56,658 bases of DNA, taken from Dehalococcoides sp. JdFR-56. Lineage in GTDB: Bacteria; Chloroflexota; Dehalococcoidia; Dehalococcoidales; RBG-16-60-22. A program made the position numbers and the translations under genes. How positions within the stretch are numbered: the stretch's first letter is position 1; the number at the start of each line of letters is the position of its first letter. Of the stretch, positions 16,271 through 39,268 are shown piece by piece. Under the pieces are notes generated by a model. The model did no database searches. It was given only the letters and a program-made list of their open reading frames with translations, and was not told where the DNA came from. The stretch covers positions 1-56,658 of the forward strand of contig MTNR01000001.1 of NCBI GenBank assembly GCA_002011495.1, written 5' to 3'.

Positions 16271-16323
16271 GCCAAGGCCTCTGGTAAGGGCGGCCAGGCG
16301 GCGCAAATCAGCTTGAAAGACTG

Positions 16324-16854: not shown

Positions 16855-16921
16855 GCATGGGATACCGCCCGGGCTCTAAATTATATGCGTTAGGTCAATT
16901 GTTTGGCAGGGAGGTCAGTAA

Positions 16922-18223: not shown

Positions 18224-18276
18224 TTTTTGGCCACTAGTAGCAGGAGCTTAAAAGATGAGCTGAGGGAGGAAAATAA

Positions 18277-19362: not shown

Positions 19363-19387
19363 GCAGTGGGAAAGGAGTAGAGCCAAA

Positions 19388-20386: not shown

Positions 20387-20433
20387 ATGGCTTGGTCGCT
20401 TGCTAAAAATAAAGAAATGGAGGAAAGAGGAAA

Positions 20434-23511: not shown

Positions 23512-23739
23512 CTACTCTCTGGTCACCGTGAGGATAAACCGGCTCTCGCCCTCCTGCTTGAAGTCCGGCTTCATGCCCCTTCCTTTTAGCTCCTGCACCA
23601 CGCTTTTCACCGATTCCATATCGCCCAGTATTATTCTCACCGTGTCCCCAGCGGCAAGATTATTTATCGCCTCGGTCGCCCTCAGCTTGGATAGGGGGCA
23701 GATGAGATCGGATACATCACATTCGTAGCTCGCGCTCAT
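23512..23739 (-). CDS. TusA-family sulfurtransferase / sulfur carrier
   Basis: 75 aa with DVSDLICPLSKLRA (CP motif) and a TusA-like C-terminus; 4-nt overlap with the cysteine synthase stop. Confidence 0.82.
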   Translation of the reverse strand: MSASYECDVSDLICPLSKLRATEAINNLAAGDTVRIILGDMESVKSVVQELKGRGMKPDFKQEGESRFILTVTRE

Positions 23740-24752
23740 TTTCTGTCCTCAAACCGGCTTTCTTCCGCTTTTCCCTCCAGGTAGTCACGGTAGAAGCTGG
23801 TGTATTTAAAGGCATCATCCGGCGAGATGACCACGGCCAGGCCCTGGTGCGAGCGGGCGTAATTCAGGGCGGCATGGAGTATGGCCCCCGTGGTGGGGCC
23901 AGCGGGAATGCCCTCGCGCCTGGCCAGCTCAACCGCGGTCTGGTAGGCCTCCTCGTCAGACACTTCCACGGTGTCATCGATCACCGAGCTATCCAGAATC
24001 TTGGGTATGTACTCCGGAGCTAGTCCCTTAAGCCTCTTCATCCCCGGTAGTCTATGCTCAGATGCGGCGGGCTCCACACCAATCACCTTTATCTCTGGAT
24101 TCTGCTCCTTGAGGTATCTTCCCGCCCCAACGATGGTGCCACAGGTGCCCAGGCCGGCAAAGAAGTAGCTTATTTCGCCATGTGTCTGTCTCCATATCTC
24201 CGGCCCCGTGGTGCAGTAGTGCGCCTGGACGTTGAGCTCGTTTTCGTACTGGTTCGGGCTGACATACTTATCTCTGGTGGCCGGGCTCCTTACCAGGGCG
24301 TCAACCAGCCCCCTGGCTCCCTCGGAGGGGAAGCGGGGGCAGAGGGAATCATCAGCCTCCCACACCTTTTTGGCGCCGAGGAACCTCAGCATCACCTTCT
24401 TCTCCTCGGGTATCCGCTGAGGAACGGCCACCTCCACCGCCAGCCCCCAGGCGTTGGCCAGGCAAACTAGGGCGATGCCGGTGTTGCCTGAAGATGGTTC
24501 CACCACCGTTCTCTCGCCCACCTCAAGCTCTTTCAGCATCTGGTAAGCGATCCTGTCTTTCACCGAACCAAAGGGATTGTATCTCTCCAGTTTGAGGTAA
24601 ATCTGAAAATCCCGGCTCTCGGTTATCCGGTTCAGCCTCACCAGCGGCGTCGGGTTCTCCGGACCAGCCACAAGCTCGGTTATGTCAGCGTAAACCCGGA
24701 GCACATGGTCCGGCTTCTTCCCCACATGCTCCTTCTCTATTCTAGCTTCCAT
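23736..24752 (-). CDS. PLP-dependent cysteine synthase family protein (CysK/CysM-like)
   Basis: KLERYNPFGSVKDR (PLP Lys), EPSSGNTG, NQYENELN..AHY..TGPEIW, GLGTCGT. Confidence 0.9.
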   Translation of the reverse strand: MEARIEKEHVGKKPDHVLRVYADITELVAGPENPTPLVRLNRITESRDFQIYLKLERYNPFGSVKDRIAYQMLKELEVGERTVVEPSSGNTGIALVCLANAWGLAVEVAVPQRIPEEKKVMLRFLGAKKVWEADDSLCPRFPSEGARGLVDALVRSPATRDKYVSPNQYENELNVQAHYCTTGPEIWRQTHGEISYFFAGLGTCGTIVGAGRYLKEQNPEIKVIGVEPAASEHRLPGMKRLKGLAPEYIPKILDSSVIDDTVEVSDEEAYQTAVELARREGIPAGPTTGAILHAALNYARSHQGLAVVISPDDAFKYTSFYRDYLEGKAEESRFEDRK

Positions 24753-24788
24753 ACTCCTTGGTGCTCCCTTCGCCCTGGTGAGCTTCCA

Positions 24789-25745
24789 TCAGGGATAAAG
24801 GTTACCCCCAATCCAGTATCTTCTTCTCTCCTCTGGCCTCTCAATAACCTCCAGGTTGAGGGGTTTGACCACCTCTTCCAGATATTTCTTCAGACCGAGG
24901 CGCCCAATGGTGGCCCCGATCCTCTCTCTACCTTCAGCATTCGCCTGGTACCAGGCAAGGGTCTTCTCAATGAGAGGGAAACATTCCTCGTCCGAGACGA
25001 ACTTGGCTACCTCATAGGAGAGGAGGGGATGCTTGCCGTGCTTACCCCCTACTCTAGCCAGCCAGCCCTTCCTCGCCTCCACCATGGCCTCCACCGGGCA
25101 GACCTTGATGCAATCCCCGCAATAGATGCACTTGCTGTCATCCCTCATCGGCAGCTCATTTACCATGGTGAGCGCTTTCTCCTCACAGTTGGCGGCGCAG
25201 AGCCCACAGCCATTGCACAGCTCCTCCATTAGCCTAGGCTCCACCATTCCCTGAAAGCCTAGGTCTGCGTCCCTCGCTCCAGGGCAATCAATGGGACAGC
25301 CGGCGAAGGTTATCTTGAACTTATGATGCCCGGTGGCGGTGCCAAAAAAGCGCTTGTCCACCTCAAGACACATGGTCTGAGAGTCGGTGAGGCCATTGGG
25401 GTTATAGGTGCACCCGGCACAAGCGGTGGGCACCCTGACCCGAGGGCCACAGGAGGCGACCGCCCAATCCACCTGCTTCAGCTCGGCGGTAACCGCCTCA
25501 AAATGCTGGTAGTGCACGTAAGGGATCTCAATTGACTGGCGAACTGAGGTGTGAACCTCCCCGCGCCCGTATTTCTCAGCAATCTCGGCGGCTTTGCGCA
25601 GCTGCCGCGAGCTCAGCTTTCCCGCGGGACAGCGAAGCCTCACGGTGAAAAGGTTCTCCTGGGTCTGCTTGATGAAGCCCCCGCTTTTCAGCTCAGCAAG
25701 GTCCACCTTCAGCTGCCGAGCTTCCCGTCTAAGCCTGGCGTCCAT
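24789..25745 (-). CDS. Nitrite/sulfite reductase-like Fe-S protein with an inserted 2x[4Fe-4S] ferredoxin domain (AsrC/Dsr-LP-like)
   Basis: FTVRLR..AG, HTSVRQ, RVPTACAGCTYN, HKFKITFAGCPIDC, CNGCGLC...C and CIYCGDCIKVCP, GRERIG. Confidence 0.8.
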   Translation of the reverse strand: MDARLRREARQLKVDLAELKSGGFIKQTQENLFTVRLRCPAGKLSSRQLRKAAEIAEKYGRGEVHTSVRQSIEIPYVHYQHFEAVTAELKQVDWAVASCGPRVRVPTACAGCTYNPNGLTDSQTMCLEVDKRFFGTATGHHKFKITFAGCPIDCPGARDADLGFQGMVEPRLMEELCNGCGLCAANCEEKALTMVNELPMRDDSKCIYCGDCIKVCPVEAMVEARKGWLARVGGKHGKHPLLSYEVAKFVSDEECFPLIEKTLAWYQANAEGRERIGATIGRLGLKKYLEEVVKPLNLEVIERPEERRRYWIGGNLYP

Positions 25746-25800
25746 TTCTCCCCCTTATTTTCTTGAAATTAACAGTAAGCCTACCCGAACCGGTCTAAAT

Positions 25801-26244
25801 TTATATGTAGTACATGACGGCCTCGGCCTGCTCCTTCTGTTTCTGCCTCTCCATCAGGTCGCGAAGGGTGATACCATCCAAGACCCCGCTTATCATCGCC
25901 CCCAGCTCGCTCCACACCTCACGCGTGGCGCAGGATGGGGAGCGCCCACATACCTCTGGATTATCGATGCACTCCATAAGAGCCGATGAGCCCTCAATGA
26001 GCTGCATCACCTCGCTCAGCTTGATTTCCTCGGGAGGCCGGGCCAGCGAGATGCCACCCTTGGTGCCTCGGGCGCTGCGCACTATCCTTCCCGCCAAGAG
26101 CGGCCGGATGAGCTGCTCAAGATAGCGCAGCGGGATCTGCTGCCGCTGCGCTATCTCCCGCAACAAAGTCCGCTCCTCACCGCCATAAAGGGCGAGGTCC
26201 AAGAGCGCCCTGGTGACATACTCTAGCTTGGTGGAAAGTTTCAT
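25801..26244 (-). CDS. Rrf2-family transcriptional regulator (IscR/CymR-like, three Cys)
   Basis: MKLSTK..Y..RAL, YLEQL, SARGTKGG, CIDNPEVCGRSPSCATREVW, MYYI C-terminus. Confidence 0.92.
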   Translation of the reverse strand: MKLSTKLEYVTRALLDLALYGGEERTLLREIAQRQQIPLRYLEQLIRPLLAGRIVRSARGTKGGISLARPPEEIKLSEVMQLIEGSSALMECIDNPEVCGRSPSCATREVWSELGAMISGVLDGITLRDLMERQKQKEQAEAVMYYI

Positions 26245-26402: not shown

Positions 26403-26978
26403 TTAATCGGCGCAGTCCAGGATGAACCCGGTCTCGTCACAGCAGAAATACTTGGGACAGCGGATGCATTCGCCCCACACCTTGGAGGGGAGCTCCTCCT
26501 TCCGCTTGGGTTTAAAACCAAGCTTCTCAAAAATCCCTCCCATTGTGGAGAAGGCGAACACCTTCTTGATCCCGACCTTGCGGCCCTCTCCCACCAAATA
26601 TCGGACGATCTGCGATGCCAAGCCACGGTGCTGAAACTGGGGATGGGTGGCCAGCGAACGAATCTCAGCGATATCCTCCCAGAGCACGTGAAGGCTTCCG
26701 CAGGCCACAATCCTTGGCGGCGCCCTCCCCACATCCGCCTCCACCACCACAAAATCCCTTATGTTCTCATAGAGGTATTCTGGCCCCCTCGGCAGCATCA
26801 GGTTGGAGCTGGCGTAACTATTGACCAGCGCCAGAATCTCCTCCACATCGGAAACGCGGGCCCGCCTTAAAGTCAAGCCACCCGAGTGAAGTCCCTTCAA
26901 GTCCTCCTCCCCAAAACCAGCCTCCAGCTGGTATCTTCGCTCTGCATACTTGTGGTGCAAGCAAACATCCTCCGGCAA
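26403..26978 (-). CDS. GNAT N-acetyltransferase, short-ArgA (amino-acid acetyltransferase)-like
   Basis: LRRARVSDV, MLPR...LYENIRDF, WEDIAEIRSLA, LPSKVWGECIRCPK...CDE. N-terminal extension; start uncertain (TTG). Confidence 0.8.
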   Translation of the reverse strand: MPEDVCLHHKYAERRYQLEAGFGEEDLKGLHSGGLTLRRARVSDVEEILALVNSYASSNLMLPRGPEYLYENIRDFVVVEADVGRAPPRIVACGSLHVLWEDIAEIRSLATHPQFQHRGLASQIVRYLVGEGRKVGIKKVFAFSTMGGIFEKLGFKPKRKEELPSKVWGECIRCPKYFCCDETGFILDCAD

Positions 26979-27043
26979 AACCCAGACCGATTTAAAAAGG
27001 TGCCTAAATCGTCAGCGATGGCACCGGGTCTTGATAATGCTAT

Positions 27044-27072
27044 ACAATAATGTAATACAATGGTATTGTCAA
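27044..27072 (-). promoter_or_regulatory. Candidate promoter for the GNAT gene with a TGTAATACA palindrome in the spacer
   Basis: Minus strand TTGACA-17 nt-TATTGT; TGTA-A-TACA at 27051-27059. Confidence 0.5.
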
Positions 27073-27123
27073 ATAACCTATATTTTGTCCTATTTTCTCC
27101 CTAGTTCTAGGAAGGAGTGCACC

Positions 27124-27897
27124 GTGAAGGATGAGATAGAAGGCGTCATCTTTGATCTGGACGGGGTGCTTGAGTTCCAGGGGAAAGCCTATCCTGGAGC
27201 CATCGAGCTCCTCAATCTACTACGCAGCCGAGGGATTCCCATCCGGGTCCTCTCCAACAGCACCCTAAAAAGCAGGCGCTCATGTGCCGAGAAGCTGAAG
27301 AGCAAGGGCTTCAACATCCAGGAGCATGAGGTGGTCACCGCTTCCTTCGCCACGGCTCGATATCTGGAGACCCTTAATCCCAGGTCTTGTTGGGTGATGC
27401 TCAAGAGGGAGGGGCTGGAGGAATTTAGCGGTTTTCGGCATGATCCGGATGACCCCGAATATATCGTTCTCGGGGATTTTCGCGAGGACTTCAATTTTCA
27501 GAACTTAAACAAAGCGCTCCGGCTCCTGTGCAAGGGCGCCAAACTGATCGTCATGATCACAGAAACCGTGGACAGCAGCCTGGGGGAGATGGAGCTGACG
27601 GTGGGGGCATACGGGAAAATGCTCGAGGATGCCGCCGGCATCAAGGCCACCTACATCGGCAAGCCGAACCGTTATATCTTCGATATCACCCTGGATACCA
27701 TGGGGAACATCGAGAGAAGCCGAATCCTCATGGTGGGAGATAGGCTGGCCACCGACATCCTGGGGGCAAAGAACGCTGGCCTCAAGACAGCGCTGGTAAA
27801 GACCGGAGAGTTCCGGGAAAGCGACCTGGAGTCCCCGGTCGCCCTCCCGGACTATATCTTTGACTCGGTCGGCGAGGTCGCCAAACTCTTTCGCTGA
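27124..27897 (+). CDS. HAD-IIA (NagD-like) hydrolase
   Basis: FDLDGV, LSNST, IGKPN, MVGDRLATDILGA, VKTG; GTG start after AAGGAG. Confidence 0.9.
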   Translation: MKDEIEGVIFDLDGVLEFQGKAYPGAIELLNLLRSRGIPIRVLSNSTLKSRRSCAEKLKSKGFNIQEHEVVTASFATARYLETLNPRSCWVMLKREGLEEFSGFRHDPDDPEYIVLGDFREDFNFQNLNKALRLLCKGAKLIVMITETVDSSLGEMELTVGAYGKMLEDAAGIKATYIGKPNRYIFDITLDTMGNIERSRILMVGDRLATDILGAKNAGLKTALVKTGEFRESDLESPVALPDYIFDSVGEVAKLFR

Positions 27898-27936: not shown

Positions 27937-28938
27937 CTACTGACCTAGCGTTGCCACCATCACCGCCTTGATGGAGTGACAGCGGTTCTCCGCCTGGTCA
28001 AAGACGATTGATGCCTCCGATTCAAAAACATCCTCGGTGACTTCCATGCTCTCCAGGCCGAACTTCTGATAGACCTGCTCGCCGATGGTCGTCTCCCGAT
28101 TGTGGAAGGCGGGCAGGCAGTGCATAAACTTCACCTCAGGGTTACCGGTCATCTCCAGCACCTTTTGGTTCACCTGATACGGCTTAAGTAATTCGATTCT
28201 CTCCTTCCAGACGTCCTCCCCCTCACCCATGGATACCCAGACATCCGTGTAAAGAAAATCGCAATCCTTCACCCCCTCCGCCACGTTGTCCGTTATCTTG
28301 ATGCGGGCGCCGGTTTGCCTGGCGATCTCCTCCGCCTTCTGCACCAGCTCCCGCTGTGGCTGCAAGCTCTTGGGCGCCACGGAGCGGAAATCCATGCCCA
28401 TCTTGGCCATGCCGATAAGCAAGGAGTTACCCATGTTGAACCGCGCGTCTCCCAGATAGGCAACCTTCACCTCGCTCAATGGCTTGGGGGTATGCTCCAT
28501 TATGGTAAAAATGTCAGCAAGCACCTGGGTAGGGTGGAACTCGTTGGTAAGACCATTCCAAACAGGGACATTGGAATACTCGGCAAGGGCCTCCACGATC
28601 TCCTGGCCAAAGCCGCGGTAGCCAATCCCATCATACATCCTGCCCAGCACGCGGGCGGTATCCTTCATAGACTCCTTCTTCCCCAGCTGGGAAGCTGATG
28701 GGTCAAGGTAGGTTACCTTCGCTCCCTGGTCATAGGCGGCGGTTTCAAAAGCACACCTGGTTCTGGTGGAGGGCTTCTCAAAAACCAAGACAATGTTTTT
28801 ACCTACCATTCTCGGCTGCTCAGTGCCGGCATACTTCGCCCGCTTGAGCTCTGCAGTGAGGTCAAGCAAAAAGCGTATCTCCCCGGGGGAGAAGTCCAGC
28901 AGCTTCAAAAAGCTTCTGTTTCTGAGATTATAAGCCAT
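27937..28938 (-). CDS. arcB: Ornithine carbamoyltransferase (ArcB/ArgF, probably catabolic)
   Basis: [18 protein letters not shown] (SMG ornithine loop, unlike putrescine transcarbamylase), HCLP; clustered with carbamate kinase. Confidence 0.93.
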
Positions 28939-29047
28939 CTTGCACCTCCTGATTTTTTAGTTTTGATTTGCTTTTTCCAGCCGAAAATCAAGACAGCGAT
29001 TTTTACTTCAGCCCCTCGCCTGGGCATTTCCGGGAAATTAAAGCTTT

Positions 29048-29077
29048 ATTATCGCCACAAGCCAAAGCAAATGTCAA
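29048..29077 (-). promoter_or_regulatory. Candidate sigma70 promoter for the OTC gene
   Basis: Minus strand TTGACA-18 nt-GATAAT. Confidence 0.55.
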
Positions 29078-29184
29078 GCGGTCTAAACCCCTAAATTCCC
29101 AAAATTGGGCAGATATCAACCAGATTAGTCCCCAAATCTCGCAATTTCAAGCTAATTTTTCACAAAAATGGGGTTTTTACCCTC

Positions 29185-29214
29185 TTGACAAAGGCCAAAA
29201 GTGCATTTTAAAAT
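29185..29214 (+). promoter_or_regulatory. Candidate sigma70 promoter for the arcE-amidinotransferase-SSS-arcC operon
   Basis: TTGACA-18 nt-TAAAAT, about 360 nt upstream of the first ATG. Confidence 0.6.
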
Positions 29215-29578
29215 GGGTTGCCGTATTTTTTTTTCAAGGGTGGAGACAGGGTGGGGGTTTTTGATTTGTTTTTAAATTCAAAAATGGTGGGCGTGAAGCC
29301 GATTAGTCGGCTAGGGCCACGCTAAAGGGCAAAGATGCTGCCACCGGAAAGAATAGTGAAAAACAGCGATAACGACCCAAGACCGTGGAAAGGGATGGCC
29401 AAGATCAGGTCACCAAACGATATAGATGCGGATGTCTCCCATCTTGTCATCTTGTAACCTAAATTTAACCGGCTCGACATATTCAGGAAACAATTATTGT
29501 TTAAACTGAAGAGGTTCTAATATTGAACCCCAGTTTAAGCAACAAAGCGCCAAAACAAAAGCAGAGGGATAAGCAGGT

Positions 29579-30943
29579 ATGAAGAAGAAAAATATTCTCA
29601 TTATCGGCTCCGCAGGAAGAGACTTTCATAACTTCAACATGTACTTCAAGGACAATGAAGAGTACAATGTGGTGGGCTTCACCGCCTCACACCAGGTCCC
29701 CGGTATTGTGGGGCGAAAATATCCTCCCGAGCTGGCCGGCAAGCTCTATCCGGAAGGAATCCCCATCTATGCGGAGGAGGAACTTGCCCAGCTGATAAAG
29801 GAGCTCAACGTTGATATCTGCGTCTTTTCCTACAGTGATGTTTCCTACCAACACGTGATGGGCATCGGGGCCATCGTAAATGCCGCCGGGGCCAACTACA
29901 TGATGCTCGGCCCCAAGGACACCATGCTCAAAAGCAAGAAACCGGTCATCGCGGTGGGCGCGGTGAGAACCGGCTCCGGCAAGAGCCAGACCTCAAGAAG
30001 GGTCATTGAGATCCTGATGGCGAAGGGATTGAAAGTGGTCGCGGTACGCCACCCCATGCCCTATGGCGACCTAGCTGCTCAGAGGGTGCAGCGCTTCGCC
30101 GAGCTAGCTGACCTCCAGAAGCACAACTGCACCGTGGAAGAGATGGAGGAGTATGAGCCACACATCGTGCGCGGCAATGTTATCTACGCCGGGGTAGACT
30201 ACCCGGCCATCCTAAAGGCGGTGGAGGAAGACCCCAGGGGCTGCGATGTCATCGTCTGGGATGGTGGCAACAACGACTTCCCCTTCTTCAAGCCCGACCT
30301 GATGATAACCGTTACCGACCCTCACCGCCCAGGCCATGAGCTCTCCTACTATCCCGGGGAAATCAATCTACGCATCGCCGATGTCGTGGTCATCAACAAG
30401 ATTGACAGCGCCTATCCGGAGAACATTCAGAAGGTGCGGGAGAGCATCGCCAGGGTGAACCCCAGAGCCACCGTGGTTGATGCCGCCTCTCCGATCAAGG
30501 TTGATGACCCGCAGATAATCAAGGGGAAGAAGGTGCTGGTCATCGAGGACGGCCCCACGCTGACGCACGGGGAGATGACCTACGGTGCGGGCACAGTTGC
30601 CGCGCAGCGGTACGGGGCAAGCGAGTTGGTAGACCCCAGGCCCTACACCGTGGGGAGCATCACCGAGACGTTCCAGCTCTACCCCTACATCGGCAAACTC
30701 CTGCCGGCGATGGGCTATGGCGAGCAGCAGCGCAAAGACCTGGAGGTGACCATCAACCGGACCGAATGTGACGCGGTGGTGGTGGCAACCCCCATTGACC
30801 TAAGCCGGGTGGTGGACATCAAGAAGCCGAATACCCGGGTTTACTATGAGCTTCAGGAGATCGGGACACCAAACCTGGACGAGATACTGTCCGAGTTCGG
30901 GAAGGCGCATAATCTTCCTATGAAGAGTGCCAAAGGGGCATGA
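29579..30943 (+). CDS. arcE: Arginine synthetase (ArcE)-like P-loop protein, often auto-annotated as cyclic 2,3-diphosphoglycerate synthase/GTPase
   Basis: GSAGRDFHNFN, YPPELAG.LYP.GIPI, AVRTGSGKSQTSR, RHPMPYGDL, WDGGNND, EDGPTLTHG, LPAMGYG match my recollection of Thermococcus kodakarensis ArcE; flanked by OTC and carbamate kinase. Confidence 0.85.
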   Translation: MKKKNILIIGSAGRDFHNFNMYFKDNEEYNVVGFTASHQVPGIVGRKYPPELAGKLYPEGIPIYAEEELAQLIKELNVDICVFSYSDVSYQHVMGIGAIVNAAGANYMMLGPKDTMLKSKKPVIAVGAVRTGSGKSQTSRRVIEILMAKGLKVVAVRHPMPYGDLAAQRVQRFAELADLQKHNCTVEEMEEYEPHIVRGNVIYAGVDYPAILKAVEEDPRGCDVIVWDGGNNDFPFFKPDLMITVTDPHRPGHELSYYPGEINLRIADVVVINKIDSAYPENIQKVRESIARVNPRATVVDAASPIKVDDPQIIKGKKVLVIEDGPTLTHGEMTYGAGTVAAQRYGASELVDPRPYTVGSITETFQLYPYIGKLLPAMGYGEQQRKDLEVTINRTECDAVVVATPIDLSRVVDIKKPNTRVYYELQEIGTPNLDEILSEFGKAHNLPMKSAKGA

Positions 30944-31153
30944 ACACTCGGAGCTGGGAAACGAGGATACCGCTTTGCTGGACCGATTCTTCATCATCTC
31001 GCGGTTCAGTATTCCGCCCGCGGTGCGTGACGGCGAGCGGGAAGACTAGAAGCCGGTATTATGACCAAGCAGAAGGAGGTGTTTCCGCTATGTAGCAGTG
31101 AAATGGTTACCAGGAGAGCCGGGTACAGCCTGAATTAGAAAGGAGAACACGAA

Positions 31154-32341
31154 ATGGCAAAGATTGTGAATTCCTGGAACGAGTGGGACCCCCTAAAACA
31201 CGTGATCATCGGCAGACCAGAGGGCACAAACGTTCCCGCTCCAGAGCCAGCCTGGTGGTATGATCTGCCGGAAGGCGAGTACCCACTGCCGACGTATGGT
31301 CCTTTCCCACAGGAGATGGTGGATGCGGCCAATGAGCAGATGGATTACTTCGTCTCGGTGCTGGAGAAGCGGGGGGTCAAGGTGGACCGGGCGATAATCC
31401 ATCCCTGTATGTACAACAAACCGGTCTCCACACCGGACTGGACGCAGCTGAACTGCCATGGCGTCAACAACGTTCGGGACGTGTTCCTGGTTCACGGCAA
31501 GTATATCATTGAGGCCACCACCTGCCGCCGCTCCCGATGGTACGAGTATCTGAACCTGCGCCCGCACTTTGAGCGGTTCTTCAAAGAGGACCCGGAGATG
31601 GTGTGGTTCACCGCCCCCAAGCCGCGATTGACAGACGAGTCCTACGTCAAGAATTACTACTACTACTTCAACAACGTCTGGACTGATGAGGAGAAGCGGG
31701 ACCGGCTGTACAACTGGGAGTTCCAGCTGACCGAGAAGGAGCCCCTCTGGGATGCTGCCGATGCCATGCGCTTCGGCAAGGATATTTTCCACCAGGGGTC
31801 GTGCGTGACCAACAAGAGCGGCATGGACTGGCTGAAGCGCATGTTCGCCGAGCTCGGCATCCGGGTGCACCACGTCCTGTTTGACACCCCATGGCCTCCA
31901 TCGCCGGACCGACCGGATAACTACCATCCCTGGCACATTGACGTGAACCTGGTTCCGTTGCGACCGGGGCTGTGCATGTACAACCCAGACTGGAAGCCAC
32001 GCACCCCGGAGCTGTGGGAACTGTTCAAGATAAATGACTGGGAGCTGATTCCCGCTGCCAGGCCGACCTACGTGCACAAGAACAAGGTCTACCTCACCGG
32101 GCTGTATGAGGGCAAGTCATGGATCTCGATGAACACCTTCTCCATTGACCCGAAGACGGTCTGTGTGGAGGCGCACGAGACGGCATACTGCGAGCAGCTG
32201 GACAAGCTTGGCTTCGAGGTAATCCCCATCCCCTACGAGAAGGTGATCCCGTTTGGCGGTGCTCTGCACTGCACCACGCTGGACATCTACCGAGAGGGCA
32301 AACTGGAGGATTACTTCCCGAAGCAGATCCCGGGCTACTAA
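31154..32341 (+). CDS. Amidinotransferase (AGAT/StrB1 family), acceptor/donor specificity unknown
   Basis: VNSWNEWDPL, RD, WDAAD (catalytic Asp), HID (catalytic His), WISMN, GGALHC (catalytic Cys). Confidence 0.9.
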   Translation: MAKIVNSWNEWDPLKHVIIGRPEGTNVPAPEPAWWYDLPEGEYPLPTYGPFPQEMVDAANEQMDYFVSVLEKRGVKVDRAIIHPCMYNKPVSTPDWTQLNCHGVNNVRDVFLVHGKYIIEATTCRRSRWYEYLNLRPHFERFFKEDPEMVWFTAPKPRLTDESYVKNYYYYFNNVWTDEEKRDRLYNWEFQLTEKEPLWDAADAMRFGKDIFHQGSCVTNKSGMDWLKRMFAELGIRVHHVLFDTPWPPSPDRPDNYHPWHIDVNLVPLRPGLCMYNPDWKPRTPELWELFKINDWELIPAARPTYVHKNKVYLTGLYEGKSWISMNTFSIDPKTVCVEAHETAYCEQLDKLGFEVIPIPYEKVIPFGGALHCTTLDIYREGKLEDYFPKQIPGY

Positions 32342-32355
32342 TAACCGACCAACGA

Positions 32356-32389
32356 AACGGGGCGCCTTGGCAAGGTGAGGCGCCCCGTT
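32356..32389 (+). other. Strong intergenic hairpin with no U-tract (mRNA stabiliser or partial terminator)
   Basis: AACGGGGCGCCT...AGGCGCCCCGTT 12-bp stem after the amidinotransferase stop. Confidence 0.7.
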
Positions 32390-32437
32390 GAAATTTGGGA
32401 GGGGATGAGGCTTCCTTAAAGGAGGTAAAAAAGCAAG

Positions 32438-33961
32438 ATGAACGGTTATCAGATCGGTTTGATCTCCCTTGTAGCGTTGTATGTCCTGGTCGGTGTGGCC
32501 ATGTTCTACCTGGTTCAGCGGAGCGGCCGGCGCTTCATCATCGCCGGTAAGCGGCTGCCTTTATTCCTGATAGGCACCATGCTCTTCGCCCAGGCGCTGG
32601 ACGCCAACGCCACGCTGGGAAATGCCGGAGGCGTGTATGCCGGTGGGTTTTGGGCTGGATTCCAGTTTCCGCTGGGGCTAGCCCTGTGTCTTGTTGTCGT
32701 CGCGATATGGTACGCCAAGCCCCTGAACCGGATGAACCTGATCACGCTGGCCGATTTCTACTTCCGGAGGTATGGCCGCAAGGTAGAAGTCCCCGTGGGA
32801 CTGCTCATGTGTTTCAGCTTCGTCATCCTGGTCGCGGGCAACTTGGCCGGTGCCTCCTGGATAATCCACATGGTCTTCGGCTTTGACTACCTCCCGTCGC
32901 TGATCATAATGAGTATCCTTCTCCTTGCCTACACCTTCAGCGGCGGGCTTTTCTCCTGCGCAGCCACAGACATAGTGCAGCTATACCCCGCTCTGCTAGC
33001 CTTCGTTGGAGGCGCTATCTGGCTATTCTTCAGCTACGGTGGCGGCGATTGGGGCTACTTTGCTGCGGCAATCCCAGCTGGCTACGCTGACCTTAGCGGC
33101 CTATACTCCATAGAAAACGGGGCACTTCTGAACTGGGCGGGTATCCTGGCGCTCGGCATTGGTGACGTGGTTGCCCTTGACTTCATGGAAAGAGTCTTTG
33201 CCGCTAAAGACCCGGAAACTGCCCGCAGGGGCTGCTTGTGGGGCGCTGGGTTCACCCTGATACTGGGGCTGGCAGCTTCATTCATTGGTCTGATGGCCTT
33301 CCAGCTCTTTGGGGACATCGATGACCCCAGGTCAGTCATAGTGCTGGCGGCGACCTCCATGCCGTTGGTCGTCGGGCTATTCGTCATGGCTGGTGTCATC
33401 GGTGCCGGGCTATCCACTGCCAATGGTGGCGCACTGGCTGTAGCCGCGGTGCTGGGCAGGAATATGCTGCACCGGAACATTGTCCTGCCCATGCACAGAA
33501 GAAAGGCCAGAAAGCTGGGAGTGAGCGTTGAAGACTTGGGGATTGACTGGCGTGTTCTGGACCGCAGGCTTCTCTGGTGGGCCCGCCTCATGCTAATACC
33601 AGTGATGGCAGCGTCAGTTTACCTGGCCTACGTCAAACCTGAGCCAGGCATCATGCTGGTTCTCGCCTTTGACGTGGTCTTCGCCGGGTGTCTGGTGCCT
33701 CTGACGCTGGGCATCTACTGGAAAAAGGCAAACGCGTATGGGGCGCTGGCATCAGTCGTCATCGGGTCTTTGCTCCGATTATACTTGTTCTTGACCATCC
33801 CGGAGCATTTAGCCGGTTTGGATACACTAATTCCGCCGGTTGTCTCCCTCCTGGTGATGGTGCCAGTGAGCTTGCTAACGCAGAAACAAGACCCGCCAAA
33901 GCATGAGGTGATCTTCGAAACTCCCAGCGAGGAAGAGGTGGCCCGAGCCATACGCTACTAA
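32438..33961 (+). CDS. Sodium:solute symporter (SSS family)
   Basis: FIIAGKRLPL, TLADFYFRRYG, YTFSGGL...TDIVQ, ERVFAAK, AGLSTANG, GIYWKKAN; about 13 TM segments. Confidence 0.92.
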   Translation: MNGYQIGLISLVALYVLVGVAMFYLVQRSGRRFIIAGKRLPLFLIGTMLFAQALDANATLGNAGGVYAGGFWAGFQFPLGLALCLVVVAIWYAKPLNRMNLITLADFYFRRYGRKVEVPVGLLMCFSFVILVAGNLAGASWIIHMVFGFDYLPSLIIMSILLLAYTFSGGLFSCAATDIVQLYPALLAFVGGAIWLFFSYGGGDWGYFAAAIPAGYADLSGLYSIENGALLNWAGILALGIGDVVALDFMERVFAAKDPETARRGCLWGAGFTLILGLAASFIGLMAFQLFGDIDDPRSVIVLAATSMPLVVGLFVMAGVIGAGLSTANGGALAVAAVLGRNMLHRNIVLPMHRRKARKLGVSVEDLGIDWRVLDRRLLWWARLMLIPVMAASVYLAYVKPEPGIMLVLAFDVVFAGCLVPLTLGIYWKKANAYGALASVVIGSLLRLYLFLTIPEHLAGLDTLIPPVVSLLVMVPVSLLTQKQDPPKHEVIFETPSEEEVARAIRY

Positions 33962-34039
33962 AAGACGTTAGTCCATCTGCTGAGGCAGAAAGGAGGACAA
34001 ACTTAACGCAGCGCAGCAGGCGAGGAGGAGATAGCAGCT

Positions 34040-35011
34040 ATGGAGAGAAACAGAAGCAAAACCTTTGTCATTGCCCTTGGTGGTAACTCCATCCTGAGAG
34101 CAAAGCAGAAAGGAAGTGCCGAAGAGCAGTATGAGAATATAGAGCGCACCGCGGAACAGCTACTGGATTTGCTCAGCAGCGGGAACCGCATCGTAATCAC
34201 CCACGGCAATGGACCACAGGTTGGCAATCTGCTCCTCGCCTGCGAGGCTGCCAAAGATATCGTGCCCCCTCTGCCCCTGGACATCTGCGGCGCAGCCACG
34301 GAGGGCTTCATGGGCTACATGATTCAGAATACCCTGGCCAACCAGCTGCGGCGGATAGGGGCCCCACACAATATCACCACCGTGGTAACCCAGGTGATCG
34401 TGGACCGCAATGACCCCGCCTTCAAGCACCCCTCCAAACCAATAGGCCCCTTCTACAGCGCCGAGGAGGCAGAGCAGCTGCGAAGAGAGAAAGGGTGGGA
34501 GATCATTGAAGACAGCGCCCGTGGTTACCGGCGGGTGGTGCCCTCACCAATACCGGTGAATATCCAGCAGGCCAGAATCATCAAGAGCATGCTAGATAGC
34601 GGCGAGATAGTGATCGCCGTCGGTGGCGGTGGCATCCCGGTGGTGAGGGAGGCTAACCGCGACCTGCGCGGCGTTGAAGCGGTGATTGACAAGGACTACG
34701 CCTCAGCCCGCCTGGCCATCGAGATAGATGCTGACGTCCTGTTTATTCTCACCGCGGTGGAGTATGCCTATCGAGACTTCGCCACACCTCAGCAGAAGGC
34801 GCTGGAGGAGCTGAGCCTGGCAGAAGCCAAGAAACTTCTGGAGGAAGGCCACTTCGGCAAGGGAAGCATGGAGCCCAAGATCCGGGCCGCCATAATGTTC
34901 CTGGAGGAAACAAGCCCAGACCCATCGCGGGAACGGGAGGTGATCATAACCCTCCCTGAGACGGCGATGAAGGCGCTCGAGGGCAAGACCGGCACCAGGA
35001 TTATCAGATAG
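34040..35011 (+). CDS. arcC: Carbamate kinase
   Basis: IALGGNS, THGNGPQVG, KPIGPFY, RRVVPSP, GGGGIPV, AVIDKD, GSMEPK. Confidence 0.97.
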   Translation: MERNRSKTFVIALGGNSILRAKQKGSAEEQYENIERTAEQLLDLLSSGNRIVITHGNGPQVGNLLLACEAAKDIVPPLPLDICGAATEGFMGYMIQNTLANQLRRIGAPHNITTVVTQVIVDRNDPAFKHPSKPIGPFYSAEEAEQLRREKGWEIIEDSARGYRRVVPSPIPVNIQQARIIKSMLDSGEIVIAVGGGGIPVVREANRDLRGVEAVIDKDYASARLAIEIDADVLFILTAVEYAYRDFATPQQKALEELSLAEAKKLLEEGHFGKGSMEPKIRAAIMFLEETSPDPSREREVIITLPETAMKALEGKTGTRIIR

Positions 35012-35041
35012 TCTACCCGGCGCCGCTGAAGCCTTCTTCAA

Positions 35042-35080
35042 AGGCTGCGTCCGCCTCCGCATAGAGGCTGGGCGCAGCCT
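35042..35080 (+). terminator. Long hairpin downstream of arcC (probable operon end)
   Basis: AGGCTGCGTCCGCCTC-cgcata-GAGGCTGGGCGCAGCCT imperfect inverted repeat; weak U-tract. Confidence 0.55.
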
Positions 35081-35166
35081 CTAAGCTATCCTTTCCTTCC
35101 CCAGGGATGGATAATTGACATCGGCGCAAGCTGACAGAATATCCCCCGATTTTTCTCCCCAGACTA

Positions 35167-35209
35167 TTGACAAATGGCGTTAGCCGGTTTATAATTGCAA
35201 CTGGTTGCA
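35167..35209 (+). promoter_or_regulatory. Consensus sigma70 promoter plus palindromic operator for the fur-nik operon
   Basis: TTGACA(35167)-17 nt-TATAAT(35190), immediately followed by TGCAAC-TG-GTTGCA (35196-35209). Confidence 0.85.
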
Positions 35210-35215
35210 CCAACA

Positions 35216-35629
35216 ATGAGTTGCACTACTACGCTAAAGAACAAAGGGCTGAAACTCACCCCACAGCGAAGGCTTATTCTAAACATCATCCACGAGTCCG
35301 GCGGCCACCTCACCGCTGAAGAAATCCTTGACTACGTCCATGCCCGGGTGCCCGGGGTAAATAAATCAACCGTCTACCGTACCCTGGAGCTTCTCGAGGA
35401 GCTGGGTTGCGTGTACAAGAGCGAGCTCGGGGATAGATTCATCTACCACCACGCTGAGGAGGGGCACCACCATCATCTGGTGTGCCGCGCCTGCGGCAAG
35501 AGCATTGACTGCGATGAGGACGTCTTTCTCCCGGTGGAGAGAGCACTCGATAAGAAATATGGCTTTCAAGCCCACTTCAAGCACATGGTGATGAGCGGCC
35601 TCTGCGCCGAGTGCCGGGACAAAGGCTAG
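35216..35629 (+). CDS. Fur-family metalloregulator (possibly nickel-responsive)
   Basis: LKLTPQR, HLTAEEI, STVYRTL, HHHHLVCRACG, GLCAEC. Confidence 0.92.
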   Translation: MSCTTTLKNKGLKLTPQRRLILNIIHESGGHLTAEEILDYVHARVPGVNKSTVYRTLELLEELGCVYKSELGDRFIYHHAEEGHHHHLVCRACGKSIDCDEDVFLPVERALDKKYGFQAHFKHMVMSGLCAECRDKG

Positions 35630-35739
35630 TAACTTTAAAAAATTTTTAAAGAGCCAGGCAATTGGTTTAGCCGCGGTCATGATGTCTATCCCCCGTTCGG
35701 TAAAAACCATCGCCTGGAATGGAAAAGGAGGGATGAGCT

Positions 35740-36378
35740 ATGCATATCCCCGATGGCTTTCTGAACATGGCCACTGTGGCGAGCACCTACACCATATCGG
35801 TGGGTGGGGTGGCCAACGCGGTGAGGATAGCCAATAAGAAACTGGGGGAAAAGCAGGTGCCCATGATGGGAGTTTTGGCCGCCTTCATCTTTGCTGCCCA
35901 GATGCTCAATTTCCCGGTAGCCGGGGGCACCTCCGGGCACCTCATCGGCGCGGCGCTGGCAGCTATTTTGCTCGGGCCATGGGCAGCGGTGATCATAATG
36001 AGTGCGGTGCTCATCGCCCAGAGCCTCATCTTTCAGGATGGCGGCCTCCTCGCCCTGGGAGCCAATATCTTCAATATGGCCATCATCGCCAGCTTCAGCG
36101 CCTATTATATCTACCGCCTAGCCCAGTCACTCCTTGGCGATAGCGGCAAGGGGCAGCTCATCGGCGTTTTCGCGGCTAGCTGGGGCTCGGTGTTACTTGC
36201 CTCCATCGCCTGTGCCGTGGAGCTGGCCATCTCAGGGGCGTCACCCTGGGGGGTGGTTCTGCCCGCCATGGCTGGCGTCCACGCCCTTATTGGTATCGGT
36301 GAAGGGCTTATCACCTCAGCCGTGGTCAGCCTGGTGCTGGCCACCAGAGCTGACCTCATGCGCCTGCAAAAAATCTAG
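35740..36378 (+). CDS. nikM: Ni/Co ECF transporter S component (NikM/CbiM)
   Basis: Metal-binding N-terminus MHIPDGFL (NikM-type), GTSGH, DGGLLALGAN. Confidence 0.88.
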   Translation: MHIPDGFLNMATVASTYTISVGGVANAVRIANKKLGEKQVPMMGVLAAFIFAAQMLNFPVAGGTSGHLIGAALAAILLGPWAAVIIMSAVLIAQSLIFQDGGLLALGANIFNMAIIASFSAYYIYRLAQSLLGDSGKGQLIGVFAASWGSVLLASIACAVELAISGASPWGVVLPAMAGVHALIGIGEGLITSAVVSLVLATRADLMRLQKI

Positions 36379-36396
36379 CCGTTTGGGAGGACACAG

Positions 36397-36690
36397 ATGA
36401 GCAAGAAATGGTGGATAATCGCGCTAGTTATCTCTCTGGCGCTGGCCACCATATCGCCCTTGGCCTCGTCAGCGCCCGATGGGCTGGAAAGGGTGGCCGA
36501 GGATAATGGCTTCCTTAGCCTGGCATTGGAAGCGCCATTTGAGATTGTGGCTGATTACGTCTTTCCGGGGATAGCCAATGAGGCGCTGGCCACCATAATC
36601 GCCGGCTGGCTGGGCACCATCCTTTTGTTTATCGCCGTATACGGTCTTGCTTGGTTAATCAAATCAAGAAGAAGGACAACTACTGTCTAG
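36397..36690 (+). CDS. nikN: PDGLE-domain protein (NikN-like)
   Basis: ASSAPDGLERVA motif between two TM helices. Confidence 0.85.
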   Translation: MSKKWWIIALVISLALATISPLASSAPDGLERVAEDNGFLSLALEAPFEIVADYVFPGIANEALATIIAGWLGTILLFIAVYGLAWLIKSRRRTTTV

Positions 36691-36719
36691 TCAGATACCA
36701 AGTCCCATAGGTGTAATGA

Positions 36720-37493
36720 ATGAGGCACAGTTTCCTCGACCAGTATAGCGACCGGGATAGCCTGATACACCGGCTTGACCCCCGCACCAAGCTGGTGAGC
36801 ACCTTTCTCTTCATAACCGCGGTGGCGCTGACGCCACCTGACGGATGGGTGTCTTACGCCCTGTACTCGGCCATCTTGGCCATCTGGCTAATGCTATCCC
36901 GTGTGCCCCTCGGCTACGTTCTCAAGCGCTCCCTGGTGGTCCTCCCCTTCGTGGTGCTGATCGCCATATTCATCCCCTTTTTCCGGGAGGGAGAAATAGC
37001 CGGTAGCTACAATCTGTGGCTGTGGCAAGTGTCAGTTACCCACAGCGGGATTATCATCCTGCGCAATATCCTGATTCGGGCCTGGCTCTCCGTCCTCAGC
37101 CTGATTCTGCTCACCTCAACCACCAAGCTGCCTGACCTTCTGAGGGGGCTGGAGCAACTGCACATGCCCCGGGTAATGGTCATGGTGCTCTCCTTCATGT
37201 ATCGGTATATCTTTGTGCTGGTGGATGAAGTGATGCGGATGAAGCAGGCCAGGGACAGCCGCAACTTCGGTGGCCGGCGCTGGTGGCAGATACGGACGGT
37301 GGGCAATATGATCGGCACCCTCTTCATCCGTGCCTATGAGCGCGGGGAAAGGGTTTACGCCGCCATGATGGCCAGAGGCTTTGACGGCCAAAGCCGGACG
37401 CTGAAGCGCCTGGAATTCAAGCCGGCGGATGCCTACTTTGGGCTGAGCCTCGGGACGCTGGTCATCTGGGGCAACCTCATCAACCTAATTTAG
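36720..37493 (+). CDS. nikQ: Ni/Co ECF transporter T component
   Basis: IHRLDPRTK, MYRYIF, AMMARGF. Confidence 0.88.
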   Translation: MRHSFLDQYSDRDSLIHRLDPRTKLVSTFLFITAVALTPPDGWVSYALYSAILAIWLMLSRVPLGYVLKRSLVVLPFVVLIAIFIPFFREGEIAGSYNLWLWQVSVTHSGIIILRNILIRAWLSVLSLILLTSTTKLPDLLRGLEQLHMPRVMVMVLSFMYRYIFVLVDEVMRMKQARDSRNFGGRRWWQIRTVGNMIGTLFIRAYERGERVYAAMMARGFDGQSRTLKRLEFKPADAYFGLSLGTLVIWGNLINLI

Positions 37494-37509
37494 CTAGCCA
37501 AACAAGATT

Positions 37510-38232
37510 ATGGACGACGCCATCAGAATAGAAAAACTCTCCTTCAGCTACCCCGATGGCCACCAGGCCCTTGCCGGGGTCAGCCTGGTCATTGGCCGGG
37601 GGGAATCAGTGGGCATCGCCGGCCCCAACGGGGCGGGGAAGTCCACCCTGCTGCTTCACCTAAACGGCATACTGCGCTCAGATGATGGGGCGGTCAAGGT
37701 CTTGGGGCAGCCCGTGGATGATAAGAACCTGAGGTGGATAAGAAGCAAGGTGGGGCTGGTATTCCAAGACCCGGATGACCAGCTATTCTCGCCGACCGTT
37801 TTTGATGATGTCGCCTTTGGCCCCATCAACATGGGCTATACCGCATCTGAGGTCAAAGAGGCAGTAGCCAGGGCTCTGGACTGGGTTGGCATGAAGGGCT
37901 GTGAGGAGCGCTCTTGCCACCACCTCAGCTTTGGTGAGAAGAAGCGGGTTTCCCTGGCCACCGTCCTGGCCATGGACCCCGAGATACTGGTGCTGGATGA
38001 GCCTACCAGCAACCTTGACCCCGCCGGCAAGTGGGCCCTGATCAGCCTGCTCAAAAAACTGGCCGTGACCAAGATAGTCGCCACCCATGACCTTGAGATG
38101 ATGCAGGCTCTCTGCCAGCGCATCGTCCTCCTGGACCAGGGGCAGGTGGTGGCTGAAGGCCCTGCGGAGAAGATTCTGGCGGATAAGGATTTGCTCGCTG
38201 CCCACGGGCTGCTCTCCGCCGAGCCAGTCTAA
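37510..38232 (+). CDS. nikO: Ni/Co ECF transporter ATPase
   Basis: GPNGAGKST, FQDPDDQLF, LSFGEKKR, LDEPT. Confidence 0.9.
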   Translation: MDDAIRIEKLSFSYPDGHQALAGVSLVIGRGESVGIAGPNGAGKSTLLLHLNGILRSDDGAVKVLGQPVDDKNLRWIRSKVGLVFQDPDDQLFSPTVFDDVAFGPINMGYTASEVKEAVARALDWVGMKGCEERSCHHLSFGEKKRVSLATVLAMDPEILVLDEPTSNLDPAGKWALISLLKKLAVTKIVATHDLEMMQALCQRIVLLDQGQVVAEGPAEKILADKDLLAAHGLLSAEPV

Positions 38233-38414
38233 CCAACCCCTAGCTAGACCCCTTCACCACAAAAGATACCTCACTTCCTCTCTTCATTTGATTTCCTCCG
38301 CAGCGAGAACCGCTCCAAGGTCGCCTGCGCTTTTGCAGAAATGGTATAATTAAGCGCAAAGCAAAGGCCGCTCTCAAGTAAGCCAAACTGTTTATTATTT
38401 TGGAGGTGATTTGG

Positions 38415-39266
38415 GTGAAGAGGTCAGCTCATCTGGCAGAAGGCGCTGATAGCACGCTTTCGGCAAAACTGGAGGCCTTAAAGGGCCTGCTTTCTGAGAT
38501 GGGGAGCGTGCTCATCGCCTATTCTGGCGGGATGGACAGCACCTTTCTGCTCAAAATAGCCTCCAGCGTGCTCGGAGACAAGGTGATGGCGGTAACCGCC
38601 AGCTCAGAAACCTACCCCTCAAGGGAGATGGAGGAAGCCAAGCGTAATGCCCAGATGCTTGGGGTAAGACACCTGGTCATCCATACCTGCGAGCTGGAGG
38701 ATGCCAACTTCACCTCCAACCCCCCGGAGAGATGTTATTACTGCAAGAAAGAGCTGTTCTCCAAGCTGGTGGAACTGGCCCGGCAATATGACCTAAACTA
38801 TGTGGCTGATGGCTCAAACTATGATGACTTGAACGATTTTCGCCCAGGGATGAAGGCAGCCGCCCAGTTTGGCGTGAGGAGCCCGTTAAAGGAGGCCAAG
38901 CTCACCAAAGAGGATATCAGAAGGCTCTCCCGGGAGATGAATCTGCCCACTTGGGATAAACCACCCCAGCCTTGTCTCTCAAGCCGGTTTCCCTACGGCG
39001 CCCCCATCACCAAGGAGAAGCTCTCCCGGGTTGAGCTCGCCGAGGAGTTTTTGATGAGCTTCGGCATCAGGCAGCTGAGGGTGAGAGACCATGGTGACAT
39101 CGCCAGAATAGAGGTTCCCAGGGAGGACATGCCCCTGCTTCTCGATGAGAAAGCGGCCAGGAAAATCGTGGAGCGGTTCAAGGCCCTGGGCTACAACTAC
39201 ATCACGCTGGATATCCAGGGCTACCGCATGGGCAGCATGAACGAGCCACTAAAGAGGGGGAGTTAG
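38415..39266 (+). CDS. larE: Nickel-pincer cofactor sulfur insertase LarE
   Basis: PP-loop SGGMDS, RCYYCK, DFRPG, PCLSSRFPYG. GTG start after GGAGGTGA; extended -10 TGGTATAAT at 38342-38350. Confidence 0.93.
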   Translation: MKRSAHLAEGADSTLSAKLEALKGLLSEMGSVLIAYSGGMDSTFLLKIASSVLGDKVMAVTASSETYPSREMEEAKRNAQMLGVRHLVIHTCELEDANFTSNPPERCYYCKKELFSKLVELARQYDLNYVADGSNYDDLNDFRPGMKAAAQFGVRSPLKEAKLTKEDIRRLSREMNLPTWDKPPQPCLSSRFPYGAPITKEKLSRVELAEEFLMSFGIRQLRVRDHGDIARIEVPREDMPLLLDEKAARKIVERFKALGYNYITLDIQGYRMGSMNEPLKRGS

Positions 39267-39268
39267 CC

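Follow-up and report, generated by a model that had tools for sequence, protein, structure and literature searches.

A cluster of five genes (27937-35011) was analysed in Dehalococcoides sp. JdFR-56, within a 56,658 nt stretch of contig MTNR01000001.1 referred to here as the window. It places an amidinotransferase (AT) of the AGAT family and a sodium:solute symporter (SSS) beside an ArcE-like protein, ornithine carbamoyltransferase (OTC) and carbamate kinase (CK). The cluster, of a kind that occurs in many anaerobic bacteria, is read as a catabolic pathway that would gain ATP from an imported guanidino compound and reuse ornithine as the carrier, and this reading is given a probability of about 0.5. 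An ATP-yielding amidino cycle of this kind had been put forward in a first-pass annotation of the window. The analysis upheld it as far as the recurrent linkage of AT to arc genes, the missing arcA and arcD and the importer partner are concerned. It was complicated by the presence of only one OTC gene in the genome and by a nearby N-acetyltransferase related to N-acetylglutamate synthase (NAGS).

The OTC gene (arcB/argF) is located at 27937-28938 on the minus strand. The ArcE-like P-loop protein (29579-30943, 454 aa), AT (31154-32341, 395 aa), SSS (32438-33961) and CK (arcC, 34040-35011) are all encoded on the plus strand, with gaps of 210, 96 and 78 nt between successive genes. The first-pass annotation had named these five genes and described arcB as divergent from the other four. 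The open reading frames (ORFs) were confirmed in place, the five identities were confirmed by homology and the divergent arrangement was found as described. It had also noted that arginine deiminase (ADI) and the ArcD arginine-ornithine antiporter were missing from the window. This held, and extended to the whole host genome (1.80 Mb, 95 contigs, 92.75% complete). The ADI family PF02274 had 0 matches in the window and in the genome, and the antiporter model TIGR03810 had 0 matches in the genome at E<=1e-5. With neither arcA nor arcD detected in the genome searches, the cluster is not an ADI-pathway operon (arcABC plus arcD). A family search found no arginase-family gene in the genome. No ornithine transaminase scored above cut-off in the genome; the best match, at 348 bits, adjoins argG and argH and is probably argD. 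One ornithine-cyclodeaminase (OCD)-family gene was found on a different contig. The genes argG, argH and carB were all detected, so ArcE and CK are dispensable for arginine synthesis in this genome.

The ArcE-like protein contains the Walker A motif GAVRTGSGKS. Its only matches were weak, to cobW (E 4.6e-05), LpxK (E 0.11) and the cyclic 2,3-diphosphoglycerate synthetase 9sxb (5.9e-07). Its relatives in the databases, including the ESM Atlas clusters, are named "predicted GTPase", "putative GTPase" or "cyclic 2,3-diphosphoglycerate synthase". The gene is present as a single copy in the host genome. ArcE homologues were described as P-loop NTPases with weak similarity to cyclic 2,3-diphosphoglycerate synthetase and LpxK that are annotated as "GTPase" (Michimori et al. 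2024, PMC11032458). The window protein fits this published description in its P-loop, its weak similarities and its naming. As with ArcE, it is clustered with arcB and arcC and is complementary to arcA. By this analogy the 454-aa protein would be an orthologue of Thermococcus kodakarensis ArcE (TK2200). It is proposed to be an arginine synthetase catalysing Arg + ADP + Pi <-> citrulline + NH3 + ATP. According to Michimori et al. (PMC11032458) the characterised ArcE uses L-arginine only and rejects agmatine, guanidine, D-arginine and arginine dipeptides, and the delta-G0' of the reaction is -6.8 kJ/mol at 80 degrees C. Because ArcE is restricted to L-arginine, other guanidino compounds would need prior conversion to L-arginine by an adaptor such as AT. 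The same paper describes ArcE as reversible and proposes a biosynthetic role for it in some bacteria. By the reasoning given there, a genome with argG, argH and carB points to a catabolic ArcE (PMC11032458).

OTC scored 564.7 bits against NF003286 (cut-off 515) and 429 bits against TIGR00658 (cut-off 280.85) and contains both Pfam OTCace domains. Against the putrescine carbamoyltransferase model it scored 288 bits, far under the cut-off of 500. It was classed as an ornithine carbamoyltransferase and not as a putrescine, aspartate or acetylornithine enzyme. No other OTC-type gene was found in the genome, where the second OTCace match adjoins carB. CK was classed as a carbamate kinase on a score of 404.5 bits against TIGR00746 (arcC, cut-off 358.25).

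Scans of AT against Pfam and NCBIfam gave nothing at E<=0.001, and the match to the ADI Pfam model reached only E 0.044. Residues 5-388, almost the full length, aligned to the solved amidinotransferases SxtG (6u1r, 1.5e-54), HsvA (5wpi, 9.3e-49), human AGAT (1jdw, 9.8e-47) and StrB1 (1bwd, 5.9e-38). In the alignment to 1jdw, AT residues D109, D200, H261, D263 and C373 matched AGAT D170, D254, H303, D305 and C407, and all five were invariant across an alignment of 36 homologues. In AGAT, Asp170 and Asp305 bind the guanidinium group. The catalytic triad of AGAT is Cys407-His303-Asp254 (PMC4887976, PMC3684758). The 300-flap, which these papers tie to substrate binding and specificity, reads D-P-N-P-M in AGAT, D-M-H-P-M in AmtA and D-I-F-P-S in CyrA. 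The flap of AT is not canonical and reads D-T-P-W-P-P-S-P-D-R-P-D-N-Y-H-P-W. H-P-W replaces N-P-M and is preceded by an insertion of 10-12 residues, which is restricted to the AT subclade that precedes SSS. AGAT R322 and S355 aligned with W and K in AT. The AlphaFold (AF2) model of AT was confident, at a pLDDT of 88.4 and a pTM of 0.89.

Judged by these alignments, AT belongs to the AGAT fold family and has a predicted intact catalytic apparatus and a putatively remodelled second-substrate site. Its substrate specificity probably differs from that of the enzymes with a canonical AGAT flap. It is proposed to be a guanidino-donor:ornithine amidinotransferase, and we infer that ornithine and arginine form one of its substrate pairs. 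The reactions of AGAT are written as equilibria or as reversible in published abstracts. A search for AT-arc fusion proteins returned a single longer match, of 1072 aa with a glycosyltransferase-2 domain, which was uninformative; the search is weak evidence of absence. In NCBI records close homologues of AT (P0007, P0010, P0041, P0049, P0115) are called "serine/threonine protein kinase". This name is at odds with the clear AGAT homology and has apparently spread from record to record as a misannotation.

SSS matched the Pfam family SSF with 87.5 bits (cut-off 22.8) and reached the cut-off of no named NCBIfam SSS subfamily. Its closest solved relative was SLC5A7, a high-affinity choline transporter (1.8e-15), which hints weakly at a cationic substrate and was not used as evidence. 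SSS is proposed to be the importer of the guanidino substrate.

In the proposed cycle SSS would accumulate the guanidino compound using the sodium gradient. AT would then move the amidino group, via its conserved active-site cysteine, onto ornithine to give L-arginine and the free amine. ArcE would convert arginine, ADP and Pi to citrulline, NH3 and ATP. OTC would phosphorolyse citrulline to ornithine and carbamoyl phosphate, and CK would yield a second ATP from the latter. Ornithine would be regenerated and would act as a catalytic carrier. The net reaction would be R-NH-C(=NH)NH2 + 2 ADP + 2 Pi -> R-NH2 + CO2 + 2 NH3 + 2 ATP. The gene identities and the conserved, recurrent linkage are established by sequence comparison; we infer which way the flux runs and what the donor is. 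The donor might be an agmatine-like or other cationic guanidine, a guanidino acid or homoarginine.

Relatives of AT numbered 1836 at E<=0.001, and the best 120 of these were all at least 72% identical and came from several phyla. A scan of species-representative genomes gave 79 AT loci (numbered with L below), against which the window proteins were searched by tblastn. OTC at >=70% identity was found in 14 of the 79, and the OTC homologues adjoining AT were 72-78% identical. CK was found in 14 loci. Homologues of SSS (50-84% identity) were directly downstream of or near AT in 11, and SSS is the tightest and most constant partner of the window AT subclade. A HAD-IIA phosphatase like the one in the window was present in seven. 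The arc-linked loci belonged to the phyla Chloroflexota, Thermodesulfobacteriota, Bacillota, Aminicenantes, Acidobacteriota and Actinomycetota. The groups represented were Dehalococcoidia, Desulfobacterales, Desulfatiglandales, "Deltaproteobacteria", Eubacteriales, Aminicenantes, Anaerolineales, Holophagae and Acidimicrobiia. The gene orders numbered at least seven and included ArcE-AT-SSS-CK-OTC, OTC-CK-ArcE-AT-SSS, AT-CK-ArcE-HAD-OTC-SSS, AT-ArcE-OTC, AT-OTC-CK-ArcE, AT-OTC-ArcE and AT-CK-ArcE-OTC. The first-pass annotation had looked to a conserved neighbourhood of AT with arcE, arcB and arcC and without arcA and arcD. The survey was positive for the window clade and for four or more further AT clades, in several phyla and gene orders. 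The linkage is no isolated case: ArcE is present in 20 of the 79 loci and at least one of ArcE, OTC and CK in 23. Chance adjacency is excluded by this recurrence.

A quick IQ-TREE phylogeny was built from 76 ATs, three of the 79 ORFs being left out because they fell outside 340-430 aa. The AT ORF of some loci (e.g. L004, L020, L034, L035, L038, L039) was missed by the crude ORF calling and is not in the tree. Arc-linked entries, defined by an arc gene within 6 kb, numbered 21 and fell in at least five AT clades. At least seven changes of the arc-linked label are needed on well-supported branches, and none of 500 shufflings of the labels gave as much clustering. The AT clades found on arc backbones had a mutual identity of 45-50%. 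Between L052 and L009 the identity was 86% for ArcE, 80% for OTC, 74% for CK and 49% for AT. Near-identical ArcE, OTC and CK backbones carry very different ATs, which are just 48-50% identical. AT thus behaves as an exchangeable module, and horizontal movement involves the unit as a whole. It seems that the same ArcE/OTC/CK core is fitted to different donors by different AT clades. Identity across phyla reached 82-86%; the loci do not count as independent samples, and the numbers given here are to be read accordingly.

Of the 25 loci at >=68% identity, 12 have ArcE adjacent to AT and 12 have it at another place in the genome. It was not found for the remaining locus, a 1.9-kb contig that still carries CK. 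ArcE was present elsewhere in 27 of the 39 genomes without ArcE near the AT locus, and one of these genomes (G220/L039) has a partial ArcE 8.6 kb from AT. In the class to which the window belongs AT was found in 2 of 201 genomes and ArcE in 13 of 201. The AT-linked ArcEs form one clade, separate from five AT-less Dehalococcoidia ArcEs at 48-55% identity.

The neighbours of AT in related loci were also compared. Sigma-54 activators with GAF/PAS domains are located upstream in L005, L009, L010, L052 and L055, and Lrp/AsnC regulators are located upstream elsewhere. The order sigma-54 activator - AT - OTC - CK - ArcE - GABA (4-aminobutyrate) transaminase was found in L052 (9903-16040), L055 and L046, where the transaminase ending the operon scored 564.5 bits against TIGR00700 (cut-off 506.65). 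The ATs of these three loci were 48-49% identical to the window AT, and the backbone was 74-87% identical to that of Desulfobacterales clusters with the window-type AT. This operon is a candidate 4-guanidinobutyrate version of the pathway, in which 4-guanidinobutyrate would be split into GABA and the amidino group. In two Anaerolineae loci (L023, 7817-10994; L053, 1905-5045) a tandem pair of divergent AT paralogues has an Lrp/AsnC regulator upstream and a bona fide creatininase downstream (TIGR04448, 309 bits, cut-off 235). L023 also carries an ABC importer and a DDAH/ADI-like gene. These loci suggest creatinine/creatine catabolism via amidino transfer instead of creatinase. M24-like neighbours (c32) were rejected as creatinases, having a weak Peptidase_M24 match and no NCBIfam match.

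The neighbours of AT in Acidimicrobiia and Alphaproteobacteria included omega-transaminases, amidohydrolases, agmatinase-family genes and Pot-like ABC importers. No biosynthetic partners (polyketide or nonribosomal peptide synthetases, methyltransferases, kinases) were seen in the AT loci inspected. Taken with the importers, regulators, GABA transaminase, ornithine transaminase, creatininase and agmatinase-family genes, the contexts of AT look catabolic and not biosynthetic. A cycle of AT plus ureohydrolase found no support, since arginase-family genes occurred in 7 of 8 alphaproteobacterial AT genomes but also in 8 of 14 controls. In SAR11 (Pelagibacteraceae) and other marine Alphaproteobacteria (L056-L079) AT was 45-47% identical and no arc genes were present at the loci. 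In several of these loci a Pot-like ABC importer and an agmatinase-family gene are encoded divergently from AT, and the SAR11 AT adjoins an FAD monooxygenase-like gene.

Upstream of the cluster, a short GNAT N-acetyltransferase related to NAGS is encoded on the minus strand at 26403-26978 (NF005840, 162.6 bits, cut-off 154). Its next-best models were the short and long NAGS models. The family (c24) recurs near the cluster in L001, L005, L006, L009 and L075, and the enzyme possibly replenishes the ornithine carrier pool. A HAD-IIA phosphatase is encoded on the plus strand at 26950-27897 (TIGR01460, 138.6 bits, cut-off 100.15). Its true start is probably downstream because the domain matches start at residue 63. 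Its best model, TIGR01458, remained under its cut-off and its best PDB relatives were HDHD2 and LHPP. LHPP is a phospholysine/phosphohistidine phosphatase reported to cleave P-N bonds. By analogy the window phosphatase might conceivably have N-phospho-guanidino compounds or some phosphorylated intermediate of the pathway as its substrate. Homologues with 60-69% identity were found in L001, L004, L008, L009, L010, L011 and L075 in varied gene orders.

The divergent intergenic region between arcB and arcE (28939-29578) is unusually long at 640 nt and has a GC content of 0.50 compared to about 0.57. A consensus scan alone predicted sigma-70-like sites at 29185-29214 on the plus strand and 29077-29048 on the minus strand. 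If the plus strand site is real, arcE would have a leader of about 365 nt. A riboswitch or other known RNA in the spacer was rejected, as no Rfam match was obtained for the whole window at gathering scores or for 28800-35300 at E<=5. No conservation of the spacer sequence was detected in related loci by blastn.

Other gene groups were present in the wider window. The region 15200-21777 (plus strand) encodes a TRAP transporter (DctP, DctM), an Amidohydro_2 protein, a DAP_DH_C protein (152 bits) resembling 2,4-diaminopentanoate dehydrogenase and a class III enzyme resembling glutamate-1-semialdehyde aminomutase. This group looks catabolic, and its substrate may be a diamino acid, for example ornithine. 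Immediately upstream of the GNAT gene, 23736-26244 (minus strand) encodes a PLP-dependent cysteine-synthase-like protein, an AsrC-like sulfite-reductase subunit with 4Fe-4S domains and an Rrf2-family regulator. Directly downstream of arcC, 35195-41211 (plus strand) looks like a nickel-pincer cofactor cluster. It encodes a Fur-family regulator and CbiM-type metal uptake, followed by a LarE-like PP-loop protein, a LarB-like protein similar to AIR carboxylase, and the nickel-insertion protein LarC (474 bits).

Several observations weigh against the proposed cycle. To our knowledge every characterised AGAT-family enzyme is biosynthetic and uses arginine as donor. Phosphorolysis by OTC is thermodynamically uphill and amidinotransfer is near equilibrium, so a high donor concentration would be needed. 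Set beside the delta-G0' of ArcE, the energetics of the cycle are tight. The SSS-type cluster holds no evident gene for handling the amine product. In 12 of the 39 AT genomes searched, including all six alphaproteobacterial ones, no ArcE was found, and the AT family is therefore not tied to ArcE everywhere. Conversely, 11 of the 13 ArcE genomes of the window's class are without AT. The window OTC is separately transcribed and, as the only one in the genome, may also serve biosynthesis. The GNAT could equally belong to plain arginine biosynthesis, and together with the sole OTC it makes part of the neighbourhood look biosynthetic.

The fate of ornithine bears directly on an alternative in which the cluster carries out ordinary arginine-synthetase catabolism of imported or peptide-derived arginine, with AT as a side activity (homoarginine, canavanine-like analogues, nitrogen balance) and no cycling of ornithine. 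In the AT-less relative L093 an ornithine cyclodeaminase and an ornithine transaminase-like gene flank CK-ArcE, and this locus is plain arginine catabolism with ornithine consumed. Such AT-less ArcE-CK clusters occur in the same class, where ArcE is found in more genomes than AT, and the OCD-family gene elsewhere in the JdFR-56 genome also fits this alternative. Moreover, an ornithine transaminase adjoins AT-ArcE-OTC in L018 and L019, so ornithine is not always a mere carrier. No ornithine-consuming gene was found in the loci with the SSS-type AT cluster, which fits ornithine recycling. The constancy of SSS as partner, the position of AT inside the arc operon in many gene orders and the failure of the TIGR03810 search to find a known type of arginine transporter also argue against this alternative, and recurrence over at least five AT clades is hard to square with a side activity. 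The alternative is considered unlikely. The notion that the adjacency is fortuitous, or a single shared transfer of no functional meaning, is barely credible. Transfer of one module does account for part of the distribution, given the cross-phylum identities and the dependence among loci noted above. Different ATs on near-identical backbones, in at least seven gene orders and at least five AT clades of 45-50% mutual identity, speak against it.

The same enzymes could also run as an anabolic loop, in which CK, OTC and ArcE make arginine from CO2, NH3 and 2 ATP and AT guanidinates an imported amine with regeneration of ornithine. As far as is known to us all characterised AGAT-family enzymes run in this direction. 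According to Michimori et al. (PMC11032458) ArcE is reversible and is proposed to be biosynthetic in some bacteria, and the NAGS-like GNAT and the sole OTC lie nearby. Its chances are put low, since polyketide or nonribosomal peptide synthetase, methyltransferase and kinase partners are missing from the loci, the genome already holds argG, argH and carB, and the regulators and neighbours (sigma-54 activators, Lrp, GABA transaminase, creatininase) are of a catabolic type. In addition, CK was argued to be inadequate as an in vivo source of carbamoyl phosphate in T. kodakarensis (2026, PMC13260591). A doubt of another kind concerns the chemistry of AT. It might be hydrolytic, resembling a deiminase or dihydrolase, or might use a different acceptor/donor pair, so that its link to the arc genes would be indirect. 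The guanidino-modifying superfamily holds both hydrolases and transferases on one Cys-His-Asp core. The specificity flap carries H-P-W instead of N-P-M and is longer by 10-12 residues, and W and K stand in place of AGAT R322 and S355. The full-length similarity of AT to amidinotransferases (1e-54 to 1e-38) compared to E 0.044 for the ADI model makes such an activity improbable. OTC is moreover a bona fide ornithine enzyme, above the ornithine cut-offs and far under that of putrescine carbamoyltransferase, so a ureido product other than citrulline would have no partner in the cluster.

The proposed amidino cycle can be extended to a broader view that is tentative and somewhat less probable than not. 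In this extension AGAT-family enzymes would be diversified adaptors that funnel many guanidino compounds onto ornithine in sediment and subsurface anaerobes, at 2 ATP per amidino group. It would amount to a widespread, unrecognised form of substrate-level phosphorylation, a reversed ornithine cycle with interchangeable AT modules on a mobile backbone. Candidate donors are agmatine-like amines, 4-guanidinobutyrate, creatine, creatinine, taurocyamine and homoarginine. If true, amidinotransferases, whose known characterised members are biosynthetic, would gain a catabolic role. The arginine synthetase pathway would serve not arginine alone but a whole class of compounds rich in nitrogen, and energy-limited subsurface and marine-sediment bacteria (Dehalococcoidia, Desulfobacterales, Aminicenantes) would have a 2-ATP fermentation substrate. 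It would also account for the link between an ArcE that is strictly specific for arginine and an importer unlike an arginine carrier, and the widespread "serine/threonine protein kinase" misannotation would be corrected.

The first-pass annotation had known of no catabolic, ATP-yielding use of an amidinotransferase. No description of the combination of amidinotransferase and arginine synthetase turned up in searches of the full-text literature. The main texts of both ArcE papers (PMC11032458, PMC13260591) make no mention of an amidinotransferase; their supplementary gene-cluster figures were outside the search and may bear on novelty. Nothing similar is described in the available text of a 2025 review of guanidine metabolism. 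What is new, judging from sequence, is the combination of a group-transfer entry and a carrier cycle ahead of the arginine synthetase pathway, whose core three enzymes were already known. The comparative evidence for the linkage is strong, and the function of the cycle is a prediction made from it.

The closest known system is the arginine synthetase pathway (ArcE-ArcB-ArcC) of Thermococcus kodakarensis, which gives 2 ATP per arginine (Michimori et al. 2024, PMC11032458). The same three enzyme types are present in the window, the arc genes are clustered and ArcE replaces ADI in a genome with arcC. The difference is that AT and SSS are inside the operon here, which implies that arginine would be formed in situ and ornithine recycled. 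The ADI and agmatine deiminase pathways are similar in their fermentative use of guanidino compounds and in forming ATP through a carbamoyltransferase and carbamate kinase. They differ in that no deiminase or antiporter was found here, in that the proposed cycle would give 2 ATP and not 1, and in the transfer of the group to a carrier instead of its hydrolysis. AT shares full-length homology, the Cys-His-Asp residues and the two guanidinium-binding Asp residues with the AGAT family (AGAT, CyrA, AmtA, StrB1, SxtG, HsvA). The known members serve the biosynthesis of creatine, toxins or antibiotics with arginine as donor, whereas the window clade has the enlarged H-P-W flap and is found in transporter and catabolic contexts. 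As in the urea (ornithine) cycle, ornithine would be a catalytic carrier that passes through citrulline and arginine. The proposed direction is the reverse of that cycle, with an external amidino donor and with substrate-level phosphorylation instead of ATP use.

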